NCBI GenBank assembly: GCA_001805465.1 | Contig: MHGH01000005.1 | Location: forward strand, 1 to 49,952 | Source of the DNA: Omnitrophica WOR_2 bacterium RBG_13_41_10 | GTDB taxonomy: Bacteria > Omnitrophota > Gorgyraeia > Gygaellales > Profunditerraquicolaceae | Length of the DNA stretch: 49,952 nucleotides | Direction: 5' to 3' | Part shown: piece by piece, positions 11,414-46,041 of the stretch | Position numbering within the stretch: the first letter of the stretch is position 1 | How the letters are laid out: every line of letters starts with the position of its first letter | Made by a program: the position numbers and the translations under genes | The notes under the pieces: model-generated | The model's database searches: none | Seen by the model: only the letters and a program-made list of their open reading frames with translations | Told to the model about the DNA's origin: nothing

Positions 11414-12514
11414 TTGGAACAGGAAATATTCCACAGAGCCAAAAGATACTCCGCAACAAAATATTTCTTAGCACTTTTTGACATAGCGTATCTATTATTG
11501 TTGCTTTTTCTTTTTTTAAAGACAGGCCTATCAAAAATTTTAGTAAGTAATATCTCTAAATTTTTAGCTTATCCTTTACTTATTCCTACCTATATAATAA
11601 TCGCTTCCTTAGGATATTATATTTTGGATTTTCCTTTCAACTTTTATCGCTCATTCTTGTTAGAGCACAAATTTTCTTTGAGCACGCAGAAGGTTACGGA
11701 TTGGCTGAAAGACCAACTCAAACAATTTGGCCTATCTTATGTTATTTCCTTTATCTTGGTTGCGGCATTTTATTTTATCTTGGGGAATCTCCCCAAGATC
11801 TGGTGGCTGATAGTTTCGCTATTCTGGATATTCTTTAGCCTGATCCTAGCAAGGCTTACCCCTGTAATAATTATCCCCCTATTTTTTAAATACAAAAAAC
11901 TCTCTGATGAAACACTAAGGATGAGAATTTTAAATCTAGCCCAGAAAATGCGGGTAAAAATCTTGGATTGTTTCGAAATAGATTTCAGCAAAAAAACCCT
12001 AAAGGCCAATGCCGCTTTTGTGGGGATAGGTAAGACCAGGCGGGTGATTTTAGCCGATACCTTAAAAGATAAATATACCCATGATGAGATTGAAGTAATC
12101 CTGGCGCATGAATTTGCGCATTATAAGTTAAAGCATTTACTTAAGTTGATTTTAATTAATTCTTTAATAACAGTACTATCTTTTTATTTAATTTTTAAGA
12201 CCAGCGATTATACATTACGCTTTTTTGGTTTTGTTTCGCTGTCACAGATTGCTGCTCTGCCGGTTATCTTGATTTATTTTACGTTCTTTGGTATTATTAC
12301 CCAGCCGATAGAAGCTTACCTTAGCCGCTGTTTAGAAAGAAATGCCGATAAAATGGCATTAGAGGCAACCGGTTTAAAAGATGCTTTTGTTTCCATGATG
12401 GAGAAATTGGCTGCGCAGAATCTGGCCGATAGATCACCGCATCCCGTTATCAAGTTTTTCTTCTTTGACCATCCGCCTATCGACGAACGCATCGCCTTCG
12501 CAAAATCAACGTAA
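11414..12514 (+). CDS. M48 family zinc metallopeptidase (Ste24/HtpX-like, multi-pass membrane)
   Basis: HEFAHY zinc motif, multiple TM segments, C-terminal FFFDHPPIDERI. The predicted start is TTG. Confidence 0.82.
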   Translation: MEQEIFHRAKRYSATKYFLALFDIAYLLLLLFLFLKTGLSKILVSNISKFLAYPLLIPTYIIIASLGYYILDFPFNFYRSFLLEHKFSLSTQKVTDWLKDQLKQFGLSYVISFILVAAFYFILGNLPKIWWLIVSLFWIFFSLILARLTPVIIIPLFFKYKKLSDETLRMRILNLAQKMRVKILDCFEIDFSKKTLKANAAFVGIGKTRRVILADTLKDKYTHDEIEVILAHEFAHYKLKHLLKLILINSLITVLSFYLIFKTSDYTLRFFGFVSLSQIAALPVILIYFTFFGIITQPIEAYLSRCLERNADKMALEATGLKDAFVSMMEKLAAQNLADRSPHPVIKFFFFDHPPIDERIAFAKST

Positions 12515-12523
12515 TCTCTATAT

Positions 12524-12709
12524 TTAGCAGGTCCTGGCTTGGTTTGTTTCTCGCGGGGACGCTCTCCCCGCCCCTGCGAGGCGGAGATTCGCTCCCCTGC
12601 GGTGTCTCGCTCTCACCGACTATCTTTTAGCAGGTGAACCATGCCCGCTCGTCATCCTCGGAGGCCCCGTTCGAAATCAAACCAAGCCACCCGCTAAGAC
12701 CAGTTTTTT
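12524..12709 (+). ncRNA. Candidate structured ncRNA of unknown class (GC-rich, ~175 nt). Strand is tentative
   Basis: A perfect 12-bp closing helix (12535-12546 pairs with 12678-12689) extends outward with irregularities to 12524/12697. The interior is far more GC-rich than the flanks and holds the hairpin GCGGGGA-CGCTC-TCCCCGC (12553-12571). A T6 run lies at 12704-12709. A possible promoter is TTCGCA (12497), 16 nt, TATATT (12519). Confidence 0.35.
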
Positions 12710-12830
12710 ATTGACAGGGAATTATGCAGCAGTAAAATAATATTTATTGTAGAGGATTTATTCTAGATAATGTAGTGGCTGTATAATAGAGTGGTGCTTT
12801 GGAATATCTCATAATGGAGGAGGCGAGCAT

Positions 12831-13247
12831 ATGTTAACAGAGAAAGAAAATAAAATTATAAGAAACATTGTGAATGGAAGAATGCGTAGGATTAGAATTT
12901 ATTCTTCTGTATTTATGGCCACGGTATTTTTAATATTATTGGTATTTTCGTTAAATGTAAAAAATAAGACATCGGGCATTTTAGAGAGAACATTCGGACG
13001 ATCAGAATCTTCTTTAATGAAAATAGAAACTAAAACTAAATTGGAAGAGCGCTTAAAATCTATGTTATCAGAATCCGATAACGAATTAAAGAAGATGACT
13101 TATGCTGTTATAGTTGCAAGCATTACTTGGCGACTCATTTGGTTTGGAACTATATTTTTTATGGCAATCTTAGAACTTTGGAATTTAAATATCTTTGAGA
13201 GAATAATAAATAAATTACAGGAAGAAAGAGAAATGCGACAGGTTTAA
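12831..13247 (+). CDS. Hypothetical membrane protein
   Basis: 138-aa ORF with SD GGAGGAGG, two hydrophobic segments, and no recognisable family. Confidence 0.5.
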   Translation: MLTEKENKIIRNIVNGRMRRIRIYSSVFMATVFLILLVFSLNVKNKTSGILERTFGRSESSLMKIETKTKLEERLKSMLSESDNELKKMTYAVIVASITWRLIWFGTIFFMAILELWNLNIFERIINKLQEEREMRQV

Positions 13248-13336
13248 ATTTACTTAAGCTTAAATTTATTCCTTTTTGCCAAATTGTTAACAGATTTTAA
13301 ATTGACCATTTTCACTTAAAGTGATATTTTATAAGT

Positions 13337-13684
13337 ATGCAAGAACGCCGAAGGTTTGTCAGAATTCCGGAGAATTTGCAGATATCCTACGAAATTATGC
13401 CGAGCGTAAAAAGCGGAGCTTTTATTACCAAAAATATCAGCCAGGGCGGGATAAGATTTTTTGTCCACGATCTCATTCCTAAAAATAGTCTTTTAAAAAT
13501 AAAACTCACCATTAAAAATATACCTTTCTCTTTTGATGCCATGGTGAAACTTATCTGGATTAGAGAAGAGCCTCAGAGTGAAAGATATGAAATCGGTGTA
13601 GAATTTGTAAACCTGCCTAAAAAATCCGCAAAAACCCTTATTGCTTATATAAAAGATATCTTAGAAGTAAGTCATCGTGCATAA
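13337..13684 (+). CDS. PilZ domain protein (c-di-GMP receptor candidate)
   Basis: RRRFVRIP (RxxxR) and NISQGGIRF (D/NxSxxG) motifs at the spacing expected for PilZ. 115 aa. Confidence 0.75.
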   Translation: MQERRRFVRIPENLQISYEIMPSVKSGAFITKNISQGGIRFFVHDLIPKNSLLKIKLTIKNIPFSFDAMVKLIWIREEPQSERYEIGVEFVNLPKKSAKTLIAYIKDILEVSHRA

Positions 13685-13686
13685 GT

Positions 13687-13737
13687 TTCGACCACCCTTC
13701 CATCGACGAACGCATCGCCTTCGCAAAATCTTCGTAA
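13687..13737 (+). pseudogene. Orphan copy of the last 16 codons plus stop of the M48 peptidase gene
   Basis: It reads FDHPSIDERIAFAKSS*, against FDHPPIDERIAFAKST* at 12465-12514. The 29-nt core is identical (13702-13730 equals 12479-12507). No upstream ORF is joined to it. Confidence 0.8.
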
Positions 13738-13753
13738 TTTAATTATTTTCTGG

Positions 13754-13823
13754 GTAAATGGGGTCAGAATTATTTTTTCAGTAAATGGAGTCATAGGAAA
13801 AAAATAATTCTGACCCCATTTAC
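13754..13823. terminator. Long perfect inverted repeat (25-bp stem, 20-nt loop). Probable bidirectional terminator and a member of the GGGGTCAGAATTATTT repeat family
   Basis: 13754-13778 pairs perfectly with 13799-13823. T/A runs sit at the inner ends of the stem arms. It lies at the convergent junction between the plus-strand genes and lpxB, and the right arm overlaps the lpxB stop codon. Confidence 0.7.
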
Positions 13824-14959
13824 TTCTTGAGGAAGTTGAGGATGGTTTTGGCGGCGCGAAGAGATGCCCCTTTTTCGCCAAGCCGAGATTTGACTTGTAT
13901 AAGATTCTTTTTGATCTCTTGAAGGCGGTTAGAGTCAGCGAGAATCTTTAGGGCTTCTTCTGAGATATTGCGAGGGGTGGCTTGAAACTGGATAAATTCG
14001 GGGATAATTTTTTTACCCGCCACAATATTTACCATGCCGATATAAGGGAGCCTTACCTGTGGCCGGTAAAGCAGGTAATTTAAAAGGCTAAGTTTATAGA
14101 CTACGATAAAGGGCTTTTCTAAGATTGCAGTCTCAAGAGTGGCTGTGCCGGAGGCTACCAGGCAAAAATCAGCGGCGTTGATACAATTATAGGTTTGGCC
14201 CTCGACGATTTTTAAATCTAAATTTATTCCTTTAACTATACGCTGGTAAATACTCCATTCTACCTGCGGGGATTTAGCGATCACAAACTGCGCATTAACG
14301 ATTTTATTTTTCATTAAAAGGCACGATAACAACATTACCGGTAAAATATTTTCTATCTCTGCTTTGCGCGAACCGGGTAGAAGCGCGATTGTAGTTTTGC
14401 CTTCGGCTAACCCTGCTTTTAACAGGAACTCTTTTTTGTTTGTATCGGCTGTGATGATATCTAAAAGCGGATGCCCAGTAAATTCAACATCCACCCCGTA
14501 TTTTTTATAAAACTCCTGTTCGAATTTAAACAGCACGATCATCTTATGGATATATTTTTTAATAGTTTCAATTCTGCCAGTGCGCGATGCCCAGACTTGA
14601 GGGCCGACATAATAAATAGTAGGAATAGTTTTACGGATAGCCTTGGCTAGCCTTAAGTTAAATCCGGAAAAGTCTACCAGGATGATGGCATCCGGTTTTT
14701 CGGTGGCGATTTTCTCAAGGATAAGTTTTTTTAAGGCGAAAAAGCGGGGTAGTTTCTTTAAGACGTCAAAAAGGCCGATGACTGCTAATTCTTTTATGTC
14801 GCAGTAAATCTCTTGAGCATTTTGGCGTAACAGTGTTCCTCCGACGCCGGATATTTTTATGCGGGGGGATACTTCTTTAATGGCTTTGGCGAGTGCCCCG
14901 GCATTAAGATCGCCGGATGGCTCTCCACAAATGATCATAATCTGTTTTATTTCTGCCAT
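13820..14959 (-). CDS. lpxB: Lipid-A-disaccharide synthase
   Basis: N-terminal IICGEPSGDLNAGALA (the GE(A/P)SGD motif), GT19-like length of 379 aa, and lipid A/msbA neighbourhood. Confidence 0.9.
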   Translation of the reverse strand: MAEIKQIMIICGEPSGDLNAGALAKAIKEVSPRIKISGVGGTLLRQNAQEIYCDIKELAVIGLFDVLKKLPRFFALKKLILEKIATEKPDAIILVDFSGFNLRLAKAIRKTIPTIYYVGPQVWASRTGRIETIKKYIHKMIVLFKFEQEFYKKYGVDVEFTGHPLLDIITADTNKKEFLLKAGLAEGKTTIALLPGSRKAEIENILPVMLLSCLLMKNKIVNAQFVIAKSPQVEWSIYQRIVKGINLDLKIVEGQTYNCINAADFCLVASGTATLETAILEKPFIVVYKLSLLNYLLYRPQVRLPYIGMVNIVAGKKIIPEFIQFQATPRNISEEALKILADSNRLQEIKKNLIQVKSRLGEKGASLRAAKTILNFLKK

Positions 14960-20603: not shown

Positions 20604-20940
20604 GGGCCACTAGCTCATCTGGTAGAGCACCACCCTCTAATAAGGGGGCGCTGCCGGGTAACTGGTAGTAGAAAATCTTGTAAATTGCGGGAAAATCTGT
20701 GTATTTCAAGATACTCTAAATATAGAGTAACAATTTTTGAATGCAGATAATCCGCAGCCAAGTCCGCCGATAATTATAGCGGAAAGGTTCAACGACTATA
20801 ATCAAGACGCCCTACCGTTTTTATCCAAAAGCGTTATTCTAAAAACGGTAGGGCGATGGGATAGTCTGATCTGTATGGCGACATACAGTTAACACAAATG
20901 TTTAAGGTGGGTGTGCCGCGTTCGAGTCGCGGGTGGCTCA
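20604..20940 (+). tRNA. tRNA-Lys(UUU), interrupted (exon 1 at 20604-20636, exon 2 at 20901-20940). No encoded CCA
   Basis: The joined exons give a 73-nt cloverleaf. Acceptor GGGCCAC/GUGGCUC (one G-U pair), D arm GCUC-AUCUGGUA-GAGC, anticodon stem CCACC/GGUGG with loop CU-UUU-AA, variable loop GUGUG, T arm CCGCG-UUCGAGU-CGCGG, discriminator A. The architecture closely parallels E. coli tRNA-Lys. Confidence 0.85.
20637..20900 (+). ncRNA. Group I self-splicing intron (tRNA-type, IC3-like, no internal ORF) in the anticodon loop of tRNA-Lys
   Basis: - Conserved elements: P AUUGCGGGAAA (20684-20694), Q AAUCCGCAGC (20749-20758), R GUUCAACGACUAUA (20787-20800), S GGGAUAGUC (20858-20866).
- P1: exon CCCU pairs with GGGG (20644-20647), with U.G at the 5' splice site.
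- The terminal G at 20900 precedes exon 2.
- P8 is a 14-bp hairpin (20809-20854).
- P9 is CUGUAUG-GCGA-CAUACAG with a GNRA loop (20871-20888). Confidence 0.85.
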
Positions 20941-21041
20941 TAAATTTAGTAATCCGCGGCGGGTAAATCTTGCGTTCTCCCGCCAGGTGATTAATGGAAT
21001 AGGGCGGGATCCCGCCAGCGTATAAGATGTGCTTGGCGGGA

Positions 21042-39848: not shown

Positions 39849-41638
39849 AGGAAGCCGGGAGTAAATGGCAGAGAATTGGCGAGGCTAAAAGGGCCGGGGT
39901 TTTGGTACCTTTATTTTCGGTATATTCCCGCCAAAGCATAGGTATTGCTGATTTTAGTGACTTAAAATTAGTGGTAGATTGGAGTGAGCGTAGCGGTAAC
40001 TCCATTATACAACTTCTTCCTTTAAATGAAGTAGGCTCTTATTTTTGCCCTTACGATTCCTTAAGTTCTTTTGCCCTGGAACCTGCCTATATTTGCCTAG
40101 AAAATATCCCTCATCGCAACAAAGATGCTATTAAGTTTAAGATTAATAAAATAAAAGAAGCCTATCCTCTGGGCGGCCATGTAGATTACCGGATCAGAAA
40201 AGAAAAAATCAACCTCTTGCGACAGATATATGCCCAAGAGGAGGAATTTGTCCATCCTGACTTTAGGAACTTTAAGGAAAAAAATACTTACTGGCTGGAA
40301 GATTTCGCGCTTTTTAAGGTGATTAAGGAATATTTTAAGGGAAGGGCCTGGTATGAATGGGAGGATGGCTACAAAAGGCGCGATAAAACATTATTGGATA
40401 TTTTTAAAAAACAATATTCCAAAGAAATTGATTTTCAGGTCTGGGCGCAGTGGCATCTTTATCAACAACTAAAAGAGGTAAAGCAATATGCCGCCAAGAA
40501 AGGCGTATTGCTCAAAGGAGATTTACCGATTCTGGTTTCTCGCGATAGCGCGGATGTCTGGGCGCACCCGGATTTCTTTAAATTAGAATTTTCCGCCGGA
40601 GCGCCACCTGATATGTATTGCGCCAAGGGCCAGCGCTGGGGTATGCCTACTTATAATTGGGAGAAAATAGCTCAAGATGATTACAGGTATCTTAAGGAAA
40701 AACTGCATTATGCCCAGGAGTTTTATCATATCTTACGCATAGACCATGTAGTAGGATTATTTCGCATCTGGAGTATACCTTATCAGGAAACAGAAGAAAA
40801 CAGAGGCCTAAACGGATTTTTTGATCCTGCGGATGAAAAGGCCTGGGGTGAACACGGCAGAAAAATATTATCCGTGATGTTAGAAAACACGGATATGCTT
40901 TTGTGCGCCGAGGATTTAGGCATTATACCGAAGGCCTGCCCCCGGACCCTTAAGGAATTAGGTATTCCGGGAAATGACGTGCAGCGTTGGGTAAAAGACT
41001 GGGCAGTGAAGCATGATTTTCTGGAGCCTGACAAATACCGTGCCTTGACCGTGGCAATGTTATCCACACACGATACCACTAATTGGGCAGCCTGGTGGGA
41101 GCATGAGGCCGGCACAGTAGATGAAGCGCTTTTTATCAGCAAATGCCGGGATCGCGGCATAGATTATATTCATATCAAAGACCAGCTTTTTGATTTGAAT
41201 TTTCCCTGCCGCACCAGATTACGTTGGTTAAACAGCGTAAACTCCGTAGATAAACTAGTGGGAACTTTGGGAAAGAGAAAAGAAGAGGTCAGGGATTTTA
41301 TTGATATGTATGAGAATACCTATCAAGAAAAGGAAAAGCTTTGGAAACATCTGGGCTTCGTGGGGAAAATGCAGGAGAAGGCGGATGCAGAAATCGTCAG
41401 GGCGGCCTTAAAAATAACCTTGGATTCACAGGCCATATTCTGTATTCAGTTAATCATAGATTGGCTGATGTTATCCGATATCTTTAAAGGGGATCCTTAC
41501 GAATACAGGATTAATATCCCCGGCACCATCAGCCCTTATAACTGGTCGCTGACCATTCCTATTCCTCTTGAAGATTTGCTCAAACATAAAGTCACAGAAG
41601 ATATCCGCGCGTTGATAAAAGAGGCGGGTAGAATTTAG
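39845..41638 (+). CDS. malQ: 4-alpha-glucanotransferase (amylomaltase, GH77)
   Basis: RIDHVVGLFRIW, CAEDLG and STHDT catalytic-region motifs. 597 aa. Confidence 0.88.
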   Translation: MKEAGSKWQRIGEAKRAGVLVPLFSVYSRQSIGIADFSDLKLVVDWSERSGNSIIQLLPLNEVGSYFCPYDSLSSFALEPAYICLENIPHRNKDAIKFKINKIKEAYPLGGHVDYRIRKEKINLLRQIYAQEEEFVHPDFRNFKEKNTYWLEDFALFKVIKEYFKGRAWYEWEDGYKRRDKTLLDIFKKQYSKEIDFQVWAQWHLYQQLKEVKQYAAKKGVLLKGDLPILVSRDSADVWAHPDFFKLEFSAGAPPDMYCAKGQRWGMPTYNWEKIAQDDYRYLKEKLHYAQEFYHILRIDHVVGLFRIWSIPYQETEENRGLNGFFDPADEKAWGEHGRKILSVMLENTDMLLCAEDLGIIPKACPRTLKELGIPGNDVQRWVKDWAVKHDFLEPDKYRALTVAMLSTHDTTNWAAWWEHEAGTVDEALFISKCRDRGIDYIHIKDQLFDLNFPCRTRLRWLNSVNSVDKLVGTLGKRKEEVRDFIDMYENTYQEKEKLWKHLGFVGKMQEKADAEIVRAALKITLDSQAIFCIQLIIDWLMLSDIFKGDPYEYRINIPGTISPYNWSLTIPIPLEDLLKHKVTEDIRALIKEAGRI

Positions 41639-41643
41639 AGATA

Positions 41644-41810
41644 TTTTATGGTTTCGCTTTTCGCGTGCTGAAATTTTTTGCCGTGTACTTCGGTTTACGG
41701 CTCTCTCTCGGAGAGACCTTACACGGGAGCACAATCCTCCGTTCGCCGTAATCCCTCATACACTTTTGCCAAAAAATTTCTAATGCACGCTCTAAGCGAA
41801 ACGCATAAAA
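41644..41810. repeat. 167-nt element bounded by ~37-nt terminal inverted repeats, with a GC-rich structured core (MITE-like or ncRNA)
   Basis: 41644-41680 pairs with 41770-41810, about 33 bp with one bulge and one 3x3 loop. The core contains a C(UUCG)G-capped hairpin (41681-41700) and CUCUCU/GAGAGA (41704-41718). Confidence 0.6.
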
Positions 41811-41961
41811 TTTTAATTATAGCAATTGGCTAAAACCTCCATTCGCTCGTAAAATCGCCAGCTTCATTTTGTAAAAGAATAAAAATGAAGCTGTTATAAT
41901 CTAGGGTAGTACTCTTGGGAAAACGTCTCCATAACCCTATAGAGCGATGATTTAATTAGTA

Positions 41962-43571: not shown

Positions 43572-43584
43572 GATAGAGAATAAT

Positions 43585-43633
43585 GGGGTCAGAATTATTT
43601 TCTGCCCTAGTAAATAATTCCGACCCCGTTTTT
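43585..43633 (+). terminator. Hairpin-terminator repeat, copy 2 of the GGGGTCAGAATTATTT family
   Basis: GGGGTCAGAATTATTT (43585-43600) pairs with AAATAATTCCGACCCC (43612-43627), one A.C mismatch, followed by GTTTTT. The conserved 16-mer CTAAACAGCGATAAAA lies at 43644-43659. Confidence 0.75.
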
Positions 43634-45140: not shown

Positions 45141-45153
45141 ATAAGGTAATAAA

Positions 45154-45202
45154 GGGGTCAGATTTATTTTCTGCCCTAATAAATAATTCCGACCCCGTTT
45201 TT
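45154..45202 (+). terminator. Hairpin-terminator repeat, copy 3 of the GGGGTCAGAATTATTT family
   Basis: GGGGTCAGATTTATTT (45154-45169) pairs with AAATAATTCCGACCCC (45181-45196), followed by GTTTTT. The same loop core CTGCCCTA occurs as in copy 2. The 16-mer CTAAACAGCGATAAAA lies at 45223-45238. Confidence 0.75.
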
Positions 45203-45239: not shown

Positions 45240-45890
45240 ATGCTTTACTTATATTTAGATGAAAGCGGAGATTTAGGTTTTGATTTTATAACCAAAAAGC
45301 CATCAAAATTCTTTACTATAACAGTTCTTTTAATTAAAGGGCAAAGTAATAACCGGATATTAATAAATGCTATTAAACATACCTTAAAGCGTAAATTAAG
45401 AAAGAAGAAGCTTTTTAAGAAATCTTCTTGCGAATTAAAAGGAAGTAAAGTTTCTTTTGAGGTAAAGAAATATTTTTATGGGCAAGTAGAAAAGCTGGAT
45501 TTTAAGTTATATGCCCTTACTTTGAATAAAAAAAGACTATATAAAGACTTGATGAAAGCAAAAGAAAGAATTTATAATTACATAGCAAGGTTAGTTTTAG
45601 ATCAGATAAACTTTGACGATGCGCAAGCAAGAGTTATTTTGATATTAGATAAAAGTAAAGGTAAGCCAGAAATCGCCGATTTTAATTCCTATATTTTTAG
45701 TCAAATTAAAGCTAAGATCAATCCAAGAATACCTTTAGACATTTATCATGGTTTGTCGCATGAAAATTTAGGGTTGCAAGCAGTTGATGTGTTCGCGTGG
45801 GGAATATTTAGGAAGTATGAAAAACGGGATTTAGAGTGGTTTAATGTGTTTAAGGGCAAAATTACTTATGACGATGTTTATCTCCCCTAA
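45240..45890 (+). CDS. DUF3800 domain protein
   Basis: The N-terminal LYLDESGDLGF motif is characteristic of DUF3800. 216 aa. No SD precedes the ATG. Confidence 0.65.
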   Translation: MLYLYLDESGDLGFDFITKKPSKFFTITVLLIKGQSNNRILINAIKHTLKRKLRKKKLFKKSSCELKGSKVSFEVKKYFYGQVEKLDFKLYALTLNKKRLYKDLMKAKERIYNYIARLVLDQINFDDAQARVILILDKSKGKPEIADFNSYIFSQIKAKINPRIPLDIYHGLSHENLGLQAVDVFAWGIFRKYEKRDLEWFNVFKGKITYDDVYLP

Positions 45891-46041
45891 AATAAAAACG
45901 AGCGTGCCCTACAGGTTTTTAACGTTTAGGCTCTTGCCCACCATACGGAGGGGAACACCTAAAACAACCCATAGCGGTCTTACCGCTCAACAATAAGTAT
46001 ATTCGGTAAAGTGTATTTTGTCAAGAAATTTATTCTAAAGA

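Follow-up and report, generated by a model that had tools for sequence, protein, structure and literature searches.

How does the end of a housekeeping gene come to stand a second time, on its own, more than a kilobase beyond the gene? The question is raised by a 49,952-nt stretch of DNA (hereafter the window; positions 1 to 49,952 of contig MHGH01000005.1) from Omnitrophica WOR_2 bacterium RBG_13_41_10, in which the 3′ end of the gene for an M48 peptidase recurs as an orphan fragment just ahead of the convergent gene lpxB. A sequence-only reading of this DNA had seen here an element that inserted itself into a protein-coding gene and brought a replacement gene end with it, possibly by a new mechanism. 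We compared the window with relatives, i.e. loci (designated by L-numbers) drawn from genomes and metagenomes. The comparison suggests, with a probability that we put at roughly 0.65, that the orphan once ended the resident M48 allele and was displaced when DNA from related Omnitrophota recombined into a variable spacer. This would most likely make it a recombination scar of a known kind, and neither a new mobile element nor the trace of a new integration mechanism.

Two copies of one gene end

The repeat search aligned positions 12464-12525 with 13687-13748 over 62 nt at 82% identity and with a spacing of 1223, which bears out the earlier observation that the last ~17 codons of the M48 gene recur downstream (Table 1). 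The identical 29-nt core reported with it (ATCGACGAACGCATCGCCTTCGCAAAATC) has exactly two exact occurrences in the 50-kb window (12479-12507 and 13702-13730); no such match arose in 100 shuffles and none is expected by chance. A profile built from 173 M48 3′ ends also recognizes the orphan (E = 2.9e-6), which lies outside every open reading frame (ORF) of at least 40 aa. Further copies of the repeat core, or of the end of the GC-rich element that follows the gene, were found nowhere else in the window. A weak repeat between 12135-12164 and 13248-13277 (30 nt, 73%) was dismissed as a chance match in AT-rich sequence.

The nature of the differences between the two copies is informative. In the coding part there are seven, five of them synonymous third-position changes and two first-position changes (P>S and T>S), with no indel and with the stop codon retained in register. 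Measured against a neutral synonymous fraction of ~0.25, this synonymous excess has a binomial p of ~0.013 (our own calculation). Since the differences are mostly synonymous and no indel has occurred, the copies appear to have diverged as functional alleles in different lineages rather than through decay of a duplicate made in situ. The orphan is 41/44 nt identical to the M48 tail of the closest relative, L001, and had no exact match to any other M48 tail. It is best seen as a non-functional scar, and the identical core between it and the gene could, judged from the sequence, permit loss of the intervening DNA through recombination.

What follows the orphan identifies the place it occupies. 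In the window it precedes a perfect 25-bp-stem hairpin and then lpxB, and in L022 and L141 the M48 stop codon, this hairpin motif (AAATGGGGTCAGAATTATTTTT) and lpxB come in direct succession. Orphan and hairpin together thus have the anatomy of an ordinary M48 end, and the proposal that the orphan sits where a gene convergent with lpxB should finish, just before the hairpin, agrees with these relatives. The hairpin is one of a terminator-like family with the motif GGGGTCAGAATTATTT...AAATAATTCYGACCCC and a T run, which recurs at several intergenic sites (window 13754-13823, 43583-43633 and 45152-45202; L022 6089-6137; L141 1863-1911; L042 3064-3125) and shows 100% identity over 22-24 nt between genomes with M48 proteins of just 65% identity.

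Duplication followed by deletion is frequent in bacteria, and a tandem duplication in situ, extending from the M48 tail to the PilZ gene, would leave a tail copy right after the last duplicated gene if the cargo were later deleted from the second copy and the orphan tail had since decayed. We consider this origin distinctly improbable. Mostly synonymous differences without indels fit functional alleles and not neutral decay, with respect to the hairpin the orphan occupies the ancestral place, and in the second case described below the orphan is of resident type while the intact tail is foreign, which is impossible by duplication within one genome.

A variable spacer and the origins of its contents

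The M48 homologues belong to Omnitrophota, and in 74 loci the gene order RMMBL-L27-M48> <LpxB-GFO is kept. The gap between M48 and lpxB has a median of 111 bp among these loci; the two genes are normally directly convergent, a point that the sequence-only reading had wanted checked. In 28 loci, the window included, the gap measures 271-3606 bp. The closest relatives, L001 (M48 89% identical in aa; flanks ~92% in nt) and L004 (M48 77% in aa), have gaps of 490 and 439 bp and contain neither the two genes found between the copies in the window nor the orphan and the hairpin; the presence of these genes is thus not universal at the site. The neighbours within ~6 kb are housekeeping genes (L001, with the gene order as in the window). 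The spacer between the convergent M48 and lpxB genes is a hypervariable hotspot in this group of Omnitrophota. The RMMBL (beta-CASP) gene, which lies between DUF1846 and L27 in the window, in L001 and in most relatives, is absent in the species of L094 and L088 (L094-L101 compared).

Long gaps do not as a rule contain a copy of the gene end. None of the 27 other loci with gaps of more than 250 bp has its own M48 tail downstream, and in a profile search of 181 loci secondary M48 tails were detected only in the window (51 nt) and in the L094 type (109 nt). No second M48 body and no longer stretch of M48 homology was found in any relative by that search. A decayed tandem M48 paralogue, the origin that had been set against insertion from the outset, was rejected for this reason, as no relative has a second copy or extended homology at the position of the orphan.

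The ~1.17 kb between the two copies, called an islet in the sequence-only reading, does contain the three components listed there, namely a GC-rich structured element, a 138-aa membrane ORF (ORF138) and a gene for a PilZ protein. The first has a GC content of 0.59 and RNA fold z-scores of -4.65 (+ strand) and -5.44 (- strand). It is 91.6% identical to L001 7170-7348, located directly 3′ of the M48 stop codon, and its ends are found in L004. Because L001 carries the element without the remaining parts of the islet, we regard it as resident and not as cargo. Its family, scattered between genes in many Omnitrophota genomes, comprises 51 nhmmer matches in 44 loci on both strands (copies include L001 7168-7355, L103 8540-8776, L115 5138-5324 and 6097-6278, and others in L034, L053, L083 and L176, among further loci). 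About half of the copies begin 0-66 nt past the stop codon of a co-oriented gene, one of them slightly overlapping it, and 19/31 predicted pairs show compensatory changes. Rfam, searched at gathering thresholds and with E up to 10, contains no family for the element and gives only chance miRNA-like matches on the hairpin. The family may represent a non-coding RNA not described before, or else a repeat resembling miniature inverted-repeat transposable elements (MITEs).

Other repeats share this spacer and the window. A solo left end of the GC-rich element (TAGTTAGCAGGGTCTGT...) lies at L001 7105-7170, between the M48 stop codon and the complete element, and points to further rearrangement at the hotspot. 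A second structured family, el4, with the closing stem TTTTATGGTTTCGC...GCGAAACGCATAAAA, is nested within a GC-family element in L004 (2140-2385) and L094 (7630-7866); the copy in the window (41644-41814) is free and directly follows an ORF that ends at 41638. A third family, bounded by inverted repeats (ATTAATGAAGCTGGCG...CGCCAGCTTCATTAAT), is present at L001 7346-7600 and also in L154, L168 and L053. In L001 it occupies the space next to lpxB that is held by ORF138, PilZ, orphan and hairpin in the window, and a partial match to it is found at window 41826-41868. Elsewhere in the window, a group I intron (Rfam RF00028, 116 bits, 20627-20888) apparently splits a tRNA-like gene at 20605-20945, which ARAGORN does not call; its flanks read GGGCCACTAGCTCATCTGGTAGAGCACCACCCTCTAAT / ...GGTGGGTGTGCCGCGTTCGAGTCGCGGGTGGCTCA, and just downstream of it come tRNA-Leu(TAG) and tRNA-Gly(GCC). 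A DUF3800-V RNA motif (Rfam RF02964, 72.9 bits) at 45895-45994 on the - strand adjoins an ORF at 45240-45890.

ORF138 encodes a protein with two hydrophobic segments whose homologues form a single cluster (P0183, 93% aa identity) among 5.8 billion proteins. The module that contains it is 94% identical in nt between the window (12698-13233) and L094 (7867-8405). For ORF138 in this pair the synonymous divergence (dS) is 0.14 and the ratio of nonsynonymous to synonymous divergence (dN/dS) 0.21, a value by which the gene is under purifying selection. M48, PilZ and LpxB of the same two genomes are only 66-67% identical in aa, with a dS of ~2 for M48, and the low dS of ORF138 against that of M48 indicates a recent exchange between species. 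The protein has no significant match in Pfam, PHROG or PADLOC. In phage and plasmid collections and in IMG/VR no match was found either, which leaves a phage or plasmid origin without support.

PilZ is a domain that binds cyclic di-GMP. The protein in the window consists of this domain only according to Pfam, and has no significant match in PHROG or PADLOC. Its closest homologues occupy the same site (M48>PilZ> <LpxB) in five scattered lineages, with aa identities to the PilZ protein of the window of 79% (L085-87), 67% (L088-90), 66% (L094 type), 61% (L132) and 54% (L110); L088 and the L094 type, whose M48 proteins are 90% identical to each other, were counted together. When distances were taken from the M48 identity matrix, the lineages with PilZ proved to be mutually 65-70% identical, as distant as any in the set, and the distribution of the gene is therefore patchy. 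Between the window and L085 the dS of PilZ is 0.39 and that of M48 and LpxB is saturated. Beside such flanks this value shows that PilZ has also been exchanged, with a partner lineage different from that of ORF138. Judged from these divergences, uncultured Omnitrophota have passed both genes across species boundaries; what is visible is the outcome of the exchange, not the route of transfer.

By these comparisons the 1.17-kb islet is a mosaic and not one element, as the GC-rich element is resident and ORF138 and PilZ differ in closest partner and in divergence. The notion of one discrete islet has to be abandoned accordingly, since the first component is also found in L001, with its ends in L004, and the other two have different partners. 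A transposon, insertion sequence or MITE with target-site duplication was likewise rejected: the repeat is 52-62 nt long and 82% identical, compared with the identical 2-14 bp expected, and the islet has no bounding inverted repeats and no transposase.

A filled and an empty site in a second lineage

The only other lineage that bears ORF138 is the L094 type, known from 22 contigs of several samples in JGI, ENA and Logan assemblies, and it also carries an orphan M48 end. Orphan tails are thus confined to the two ORF138-bearing lineages among the 181 loci. A near relative of L094, L088, lacks the insert, and the two form a before-and-after pair, with an M48 dS of 0.12 over the first 930 nt. In 90-nt windows their M48 genes are 87-99% identical (mostly at least 93%) up to ~165 nt before the stop codon. 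Past this point L094 is 71-78% identical to L088 and 88-89% to L004, a member of the clade of the window. The 910-nt insert that sets L094 apart from L088 comprises the donor tail, a structured element resembling that of L004, and ORF142. Spacer, PilZ and orphan are all of L088 type, except that the orphan opens with 26 nt identical to the intact donor-type copy. From the identity profile, the M48 gene of L094 is a mosaic with a resident-type 5′ part and a donor-type 3′ end, followed by foreign DNA. With a donor tail in the gene and 26 donor-type nt in the orphan, the insert carried M48-tail sequence at both ends, and on either side its recombination took place in M48 homology.

This pair supports part of what had been claimed for the window: that inserted DNA brought a replacement gene end and that the older one was displaced downstream is seen cleanly in L094 and L088. 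The repeat measures ~52 nt in the window and ~110 nt in L094. Counted from the end of the stop codon, the identity block spans -36 to -8 in the former and -110 to -85 in the latter, and within the 29-nt core of the window the two L094 copies show many differences. The dissimilarity in both repeat length and identity block speaks against a site-specific attachment (att) core and favours recombination that is homology-driven or illegitimate. Moreover, donor-type sequence in the intact L094 gene extends on the left ~55 nt past the point where the orphan starts, an arrangement that one exchange at a single fixed core would not produce.

These data bear directly on whether an integrase placed a small element, or an island of which a remnant is left, at an attB site in the M48 3′ end, with a replacement end on board as in the case of prophage e14 in icd, the integrase having been lost since or acting in trans. 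Direct repeats with an identical 29-nt core do flank the insert, the gene end is restored by it, insert-free relatives exist, and e14/icd-icdC documents that an orphan 3′ pseudogene can arise in this way (PMC13626634). However, scans of the islet ORFs with Pfam, PHROG and PADLOC revealed no recombinase, ORF138 and PilZ being the only ORFs of at least 60 aa, which confirms that integrase and transposase genes are missing. The L094 repeat of 110 nt has its identity block ~60 nt upstream of the core of the window, the ~55 nt of donor-type sequence left of the orphan could not come from one exchange at a fixed core, the GC-rich element adjacent to the repeat is resident in islet-free relatives, and ORF138 and PilZ have different histories. 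Insertion by an integrase is therefore in our view a poor candidate, and the parallel drawn with tRNA-targeting islands fails on the absence of an integrase and on the unlike repeat of the second case.

The association with ORF138 can also be taken to mean that the gene and its promoter form a minimal selfish cassette without an integrase, which would use copies of the M48 end as portable homology arms and be installed by host recombination in the M48 genes of divergent species while keeping the gene active. We regard this as unlikely, even though duplicated M48 ends occur in both ORF138 lineages and at no other of the 181 loci, donor-type M48 sequence is present at both ends of the L094 insert, and ORF138 has passed between species with M48 proteins only 67% identical in aa. 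The cases are only two, PilZ separates ORF138 from the orphan in the window, and the repeat boundaries in the two cases are unlike. In addition, the left edge of the module coincides with a common repeat element, itself a possible source of homology, and there is no evidence of excision or circular forms.

A much simpler concern is that the assembly has joined two strains into a chimera, as the window is supported by a single contig and short repeats can mislead assemblers. We hold this to be very improbable indeed: the junction between PilZ and the orphan lies outside the shared 29-nt core, the orphan exactly matches no other M48 tail, and the analogous structure of the L094 type is present on 22 contigs from JGI, ENA and Logan assemblies.

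Table 1. Positions of the features discussed; coordinates are those of the window except in the last row.
Feature	Position	Strand	Remarks
M48 (Ste24/HtpX-type) peptidase gene, intact, 366 aa	11414..12514	+	Pfam PF16491 and PF01435
Repeat copy 1: final 17 M48 codons, stop and 11 nt past the stop	12464..12525	+	repeat search
29-nt core ATCGACGAACGCATCGCCTTCGCAAAATC	12479..12507	+	identical to 13702-13730; identical in L001 too
GC-rich structured element	12519..12705	+	dispersed repeat family of ~180 nt; taken as resident copy
ORF138 module (promoter and small membrane protein gene)	12698..13233	+	common to L094-type species; ORF 12831-13247
ORF138 promoter TTGACA-16-TAAAAT, near-consensus	12711..12738	+	kept in L094
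PilZ module (own promoter and single-domain PilZ gene)	13290..13684	+	gene 13337-13684; Pfam PF07238, E = 9e-14
PilZ promoter TTGACC-17-TATTTT	13302..13330	+	predicted
Orphan M48 3′ end, reading FDHPSIDERIAFAKSS and stop	13687..13737	+	repeat search and profile search; non-coding now
Perfect 25-bp-stem hairpin, terminator-like family (GGGGTCAGAATTATTT)	13754..13823 (13754-13778 / 13799-13823)	.	overlaps lpxB stop at 13820-13822
lpxB	13820..14959	-	convergent with M48; synteny kept in 74 loci
L094 orphan M48 end, ~110 nt, reading MEKLAAQNLADRNPHPVIKFFFFDHPAIDERIALAHSL...	L094 8441-8550		between ORF142 and PilZ; profile E = 3e-28

Proposed displacement of a resident gene end and its known parallels

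We have combined these data in a model for the origin of the orphan. Before the event the resident arrangement would have been M48-hairpin-lpxB, with an M48 gene whose end, ...AAATCTTCGTAA, immediately preceded the GGGGTCAGAATTATTT hairpin. The incoming DNA, from a related lineage, would have brought an M48 3′ end (or perhaps all of the gene) and, behind it, the GC-rich element, ORF138 and PilZ. On the left side, recombination with the chromosome would have been anchored in M48 homology, and at the right end the incoming DNA would have been joined ~55 nt ahead of the resident stop codon and not past it. Because of this joint before the stop, the final 17 resident codons would have been displaced rather than replaced, and they would still adjoin their original bidirectional terminator hairpin. 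Three routes could have led to this result: homology-facilitated illegitimate recombination (HFIR) of a linear fragment, a Campbell-type single crossover of a circularized fragment, or a double crossover from a donor that already bore the repeat. All three would use the host's own recombination machinery and require no integrase. For L094 a simple Campbell integration is ruled out by the donor-type sequence that the intact copy has left of the orphan start. That the same process acted in the window as in L094, and by what exact route, is something we infer. In the comparison with L001, M48 of the window has a dS of 0.63 and the flanking genes have values of 0.22-0.40; the raised value is compatible with import of M48 itself, and is no more than suggestive of the same mosaic as in L094.

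Several observations weigh against displacement of a resident end as the explanation. The window is one metagenomic contig, and its arrangement is known from this contig alone. The sliding identity profile against L001 lacks a sharp breakpoint. For the window's own species no allele with an empty site came to light; a scan of JGI metagenomes for this species yielded only L102, which groups with L001 (89%), and no empty-site or donor allele. L001 holds another repeat element in place of the hairpin, and because of these points the state before the event is one that we infer. No genome was found with the order M48-GC element-ORF138-PilZ-lpxB and lacking the orphan, and the proposed donor is thus hypothetical. 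Clear microhomology (3-10 bp) could not be assigned at window 13685-13687 or at L094 8440. The 29-nt core is shared by L001 too and may reflect mere conservation, so that it need not mark a crossover. Finally, ORF138 is bracketed by M48 ends in both lineages that carry it, which could mean more than chance recombination.

The locus provides sequence-level evidence that among uncultured Omnitrophota small gene modules with promoters cross from species to species, by recombination for which a conserved housekeeping gene is the anchor, and it defines the convergent spacer between M48 and lpxB as a hotspot of repeated exchange. L094 and L088 offer a clean natural example of the state after and before. 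The locus also illustrates that a duplicated gene end alone is insufficient to infer an island of the integrase type. No new mechanism is revealed, as the possibility of one, raised in the sequence-only reading, is made superfluous by host recombination with related DNA, which accounts for the pattern.

The closest parallel is found in the Rhs, contact-dependent inhibition (CDI) and type VI secretion system (T6SS) effector loci, where displaced gene 3′ ends leave orphan fragments and HFIR has been proposed as their origin (PMC5361080). As in those loci, a conserved 5′ gene body would serve as the anchor, the incoming DNA would supply a new 3′ end together with extra genes, and the old 3′ end would be shifted downstream as an orphan, all of this with no integrase. 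In contrast to them, M48 is a housekeeping protease of which both ends encode nearly the same peptide, so there is no diversification of toxin and immunity; the cargo is a small membrane protein and PilZ, and the orphan is just 17 codons long.

Experimental counterparts exist in E. coli, where a single crossover of circular molecules that carry a truncated homologous fragment gives rise to duplications of 109-950 bp flanking the insert; HFIR typically combines an insertion of ~1 kb with a deletion of ~1 kb (PMC3240628). The M48 case resembles these experiments in the direct duplication of a homologous segment around the insert, in the need for host recombination and in inserts on the scale of ~1 kb. 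It differs from them in that the repeat is shorter (~52-110 nt), in that the partners are naturally diverged alleles, and in that routes by linear and by circular DNA are indistinguishable.

A third comparison is with prophage e14, which, in the account of icd given in PMC13626634 (Hill et al. 1989 as cited there), leaves the orphan pseudogene icdC. There too a protein-coding gene has received the insertion in its 3′ end, a replacement end comes with the element, the original end persists on the far side as a pseudogene, and excision would yield a chimeric gene. However, e14, a prophage of 15 kb, has a site-specific recombinase of its own and an att core that is fixed, whereas the M48 case has no recombinase, an insert of 0.9-1.2 kb and variable junctions.

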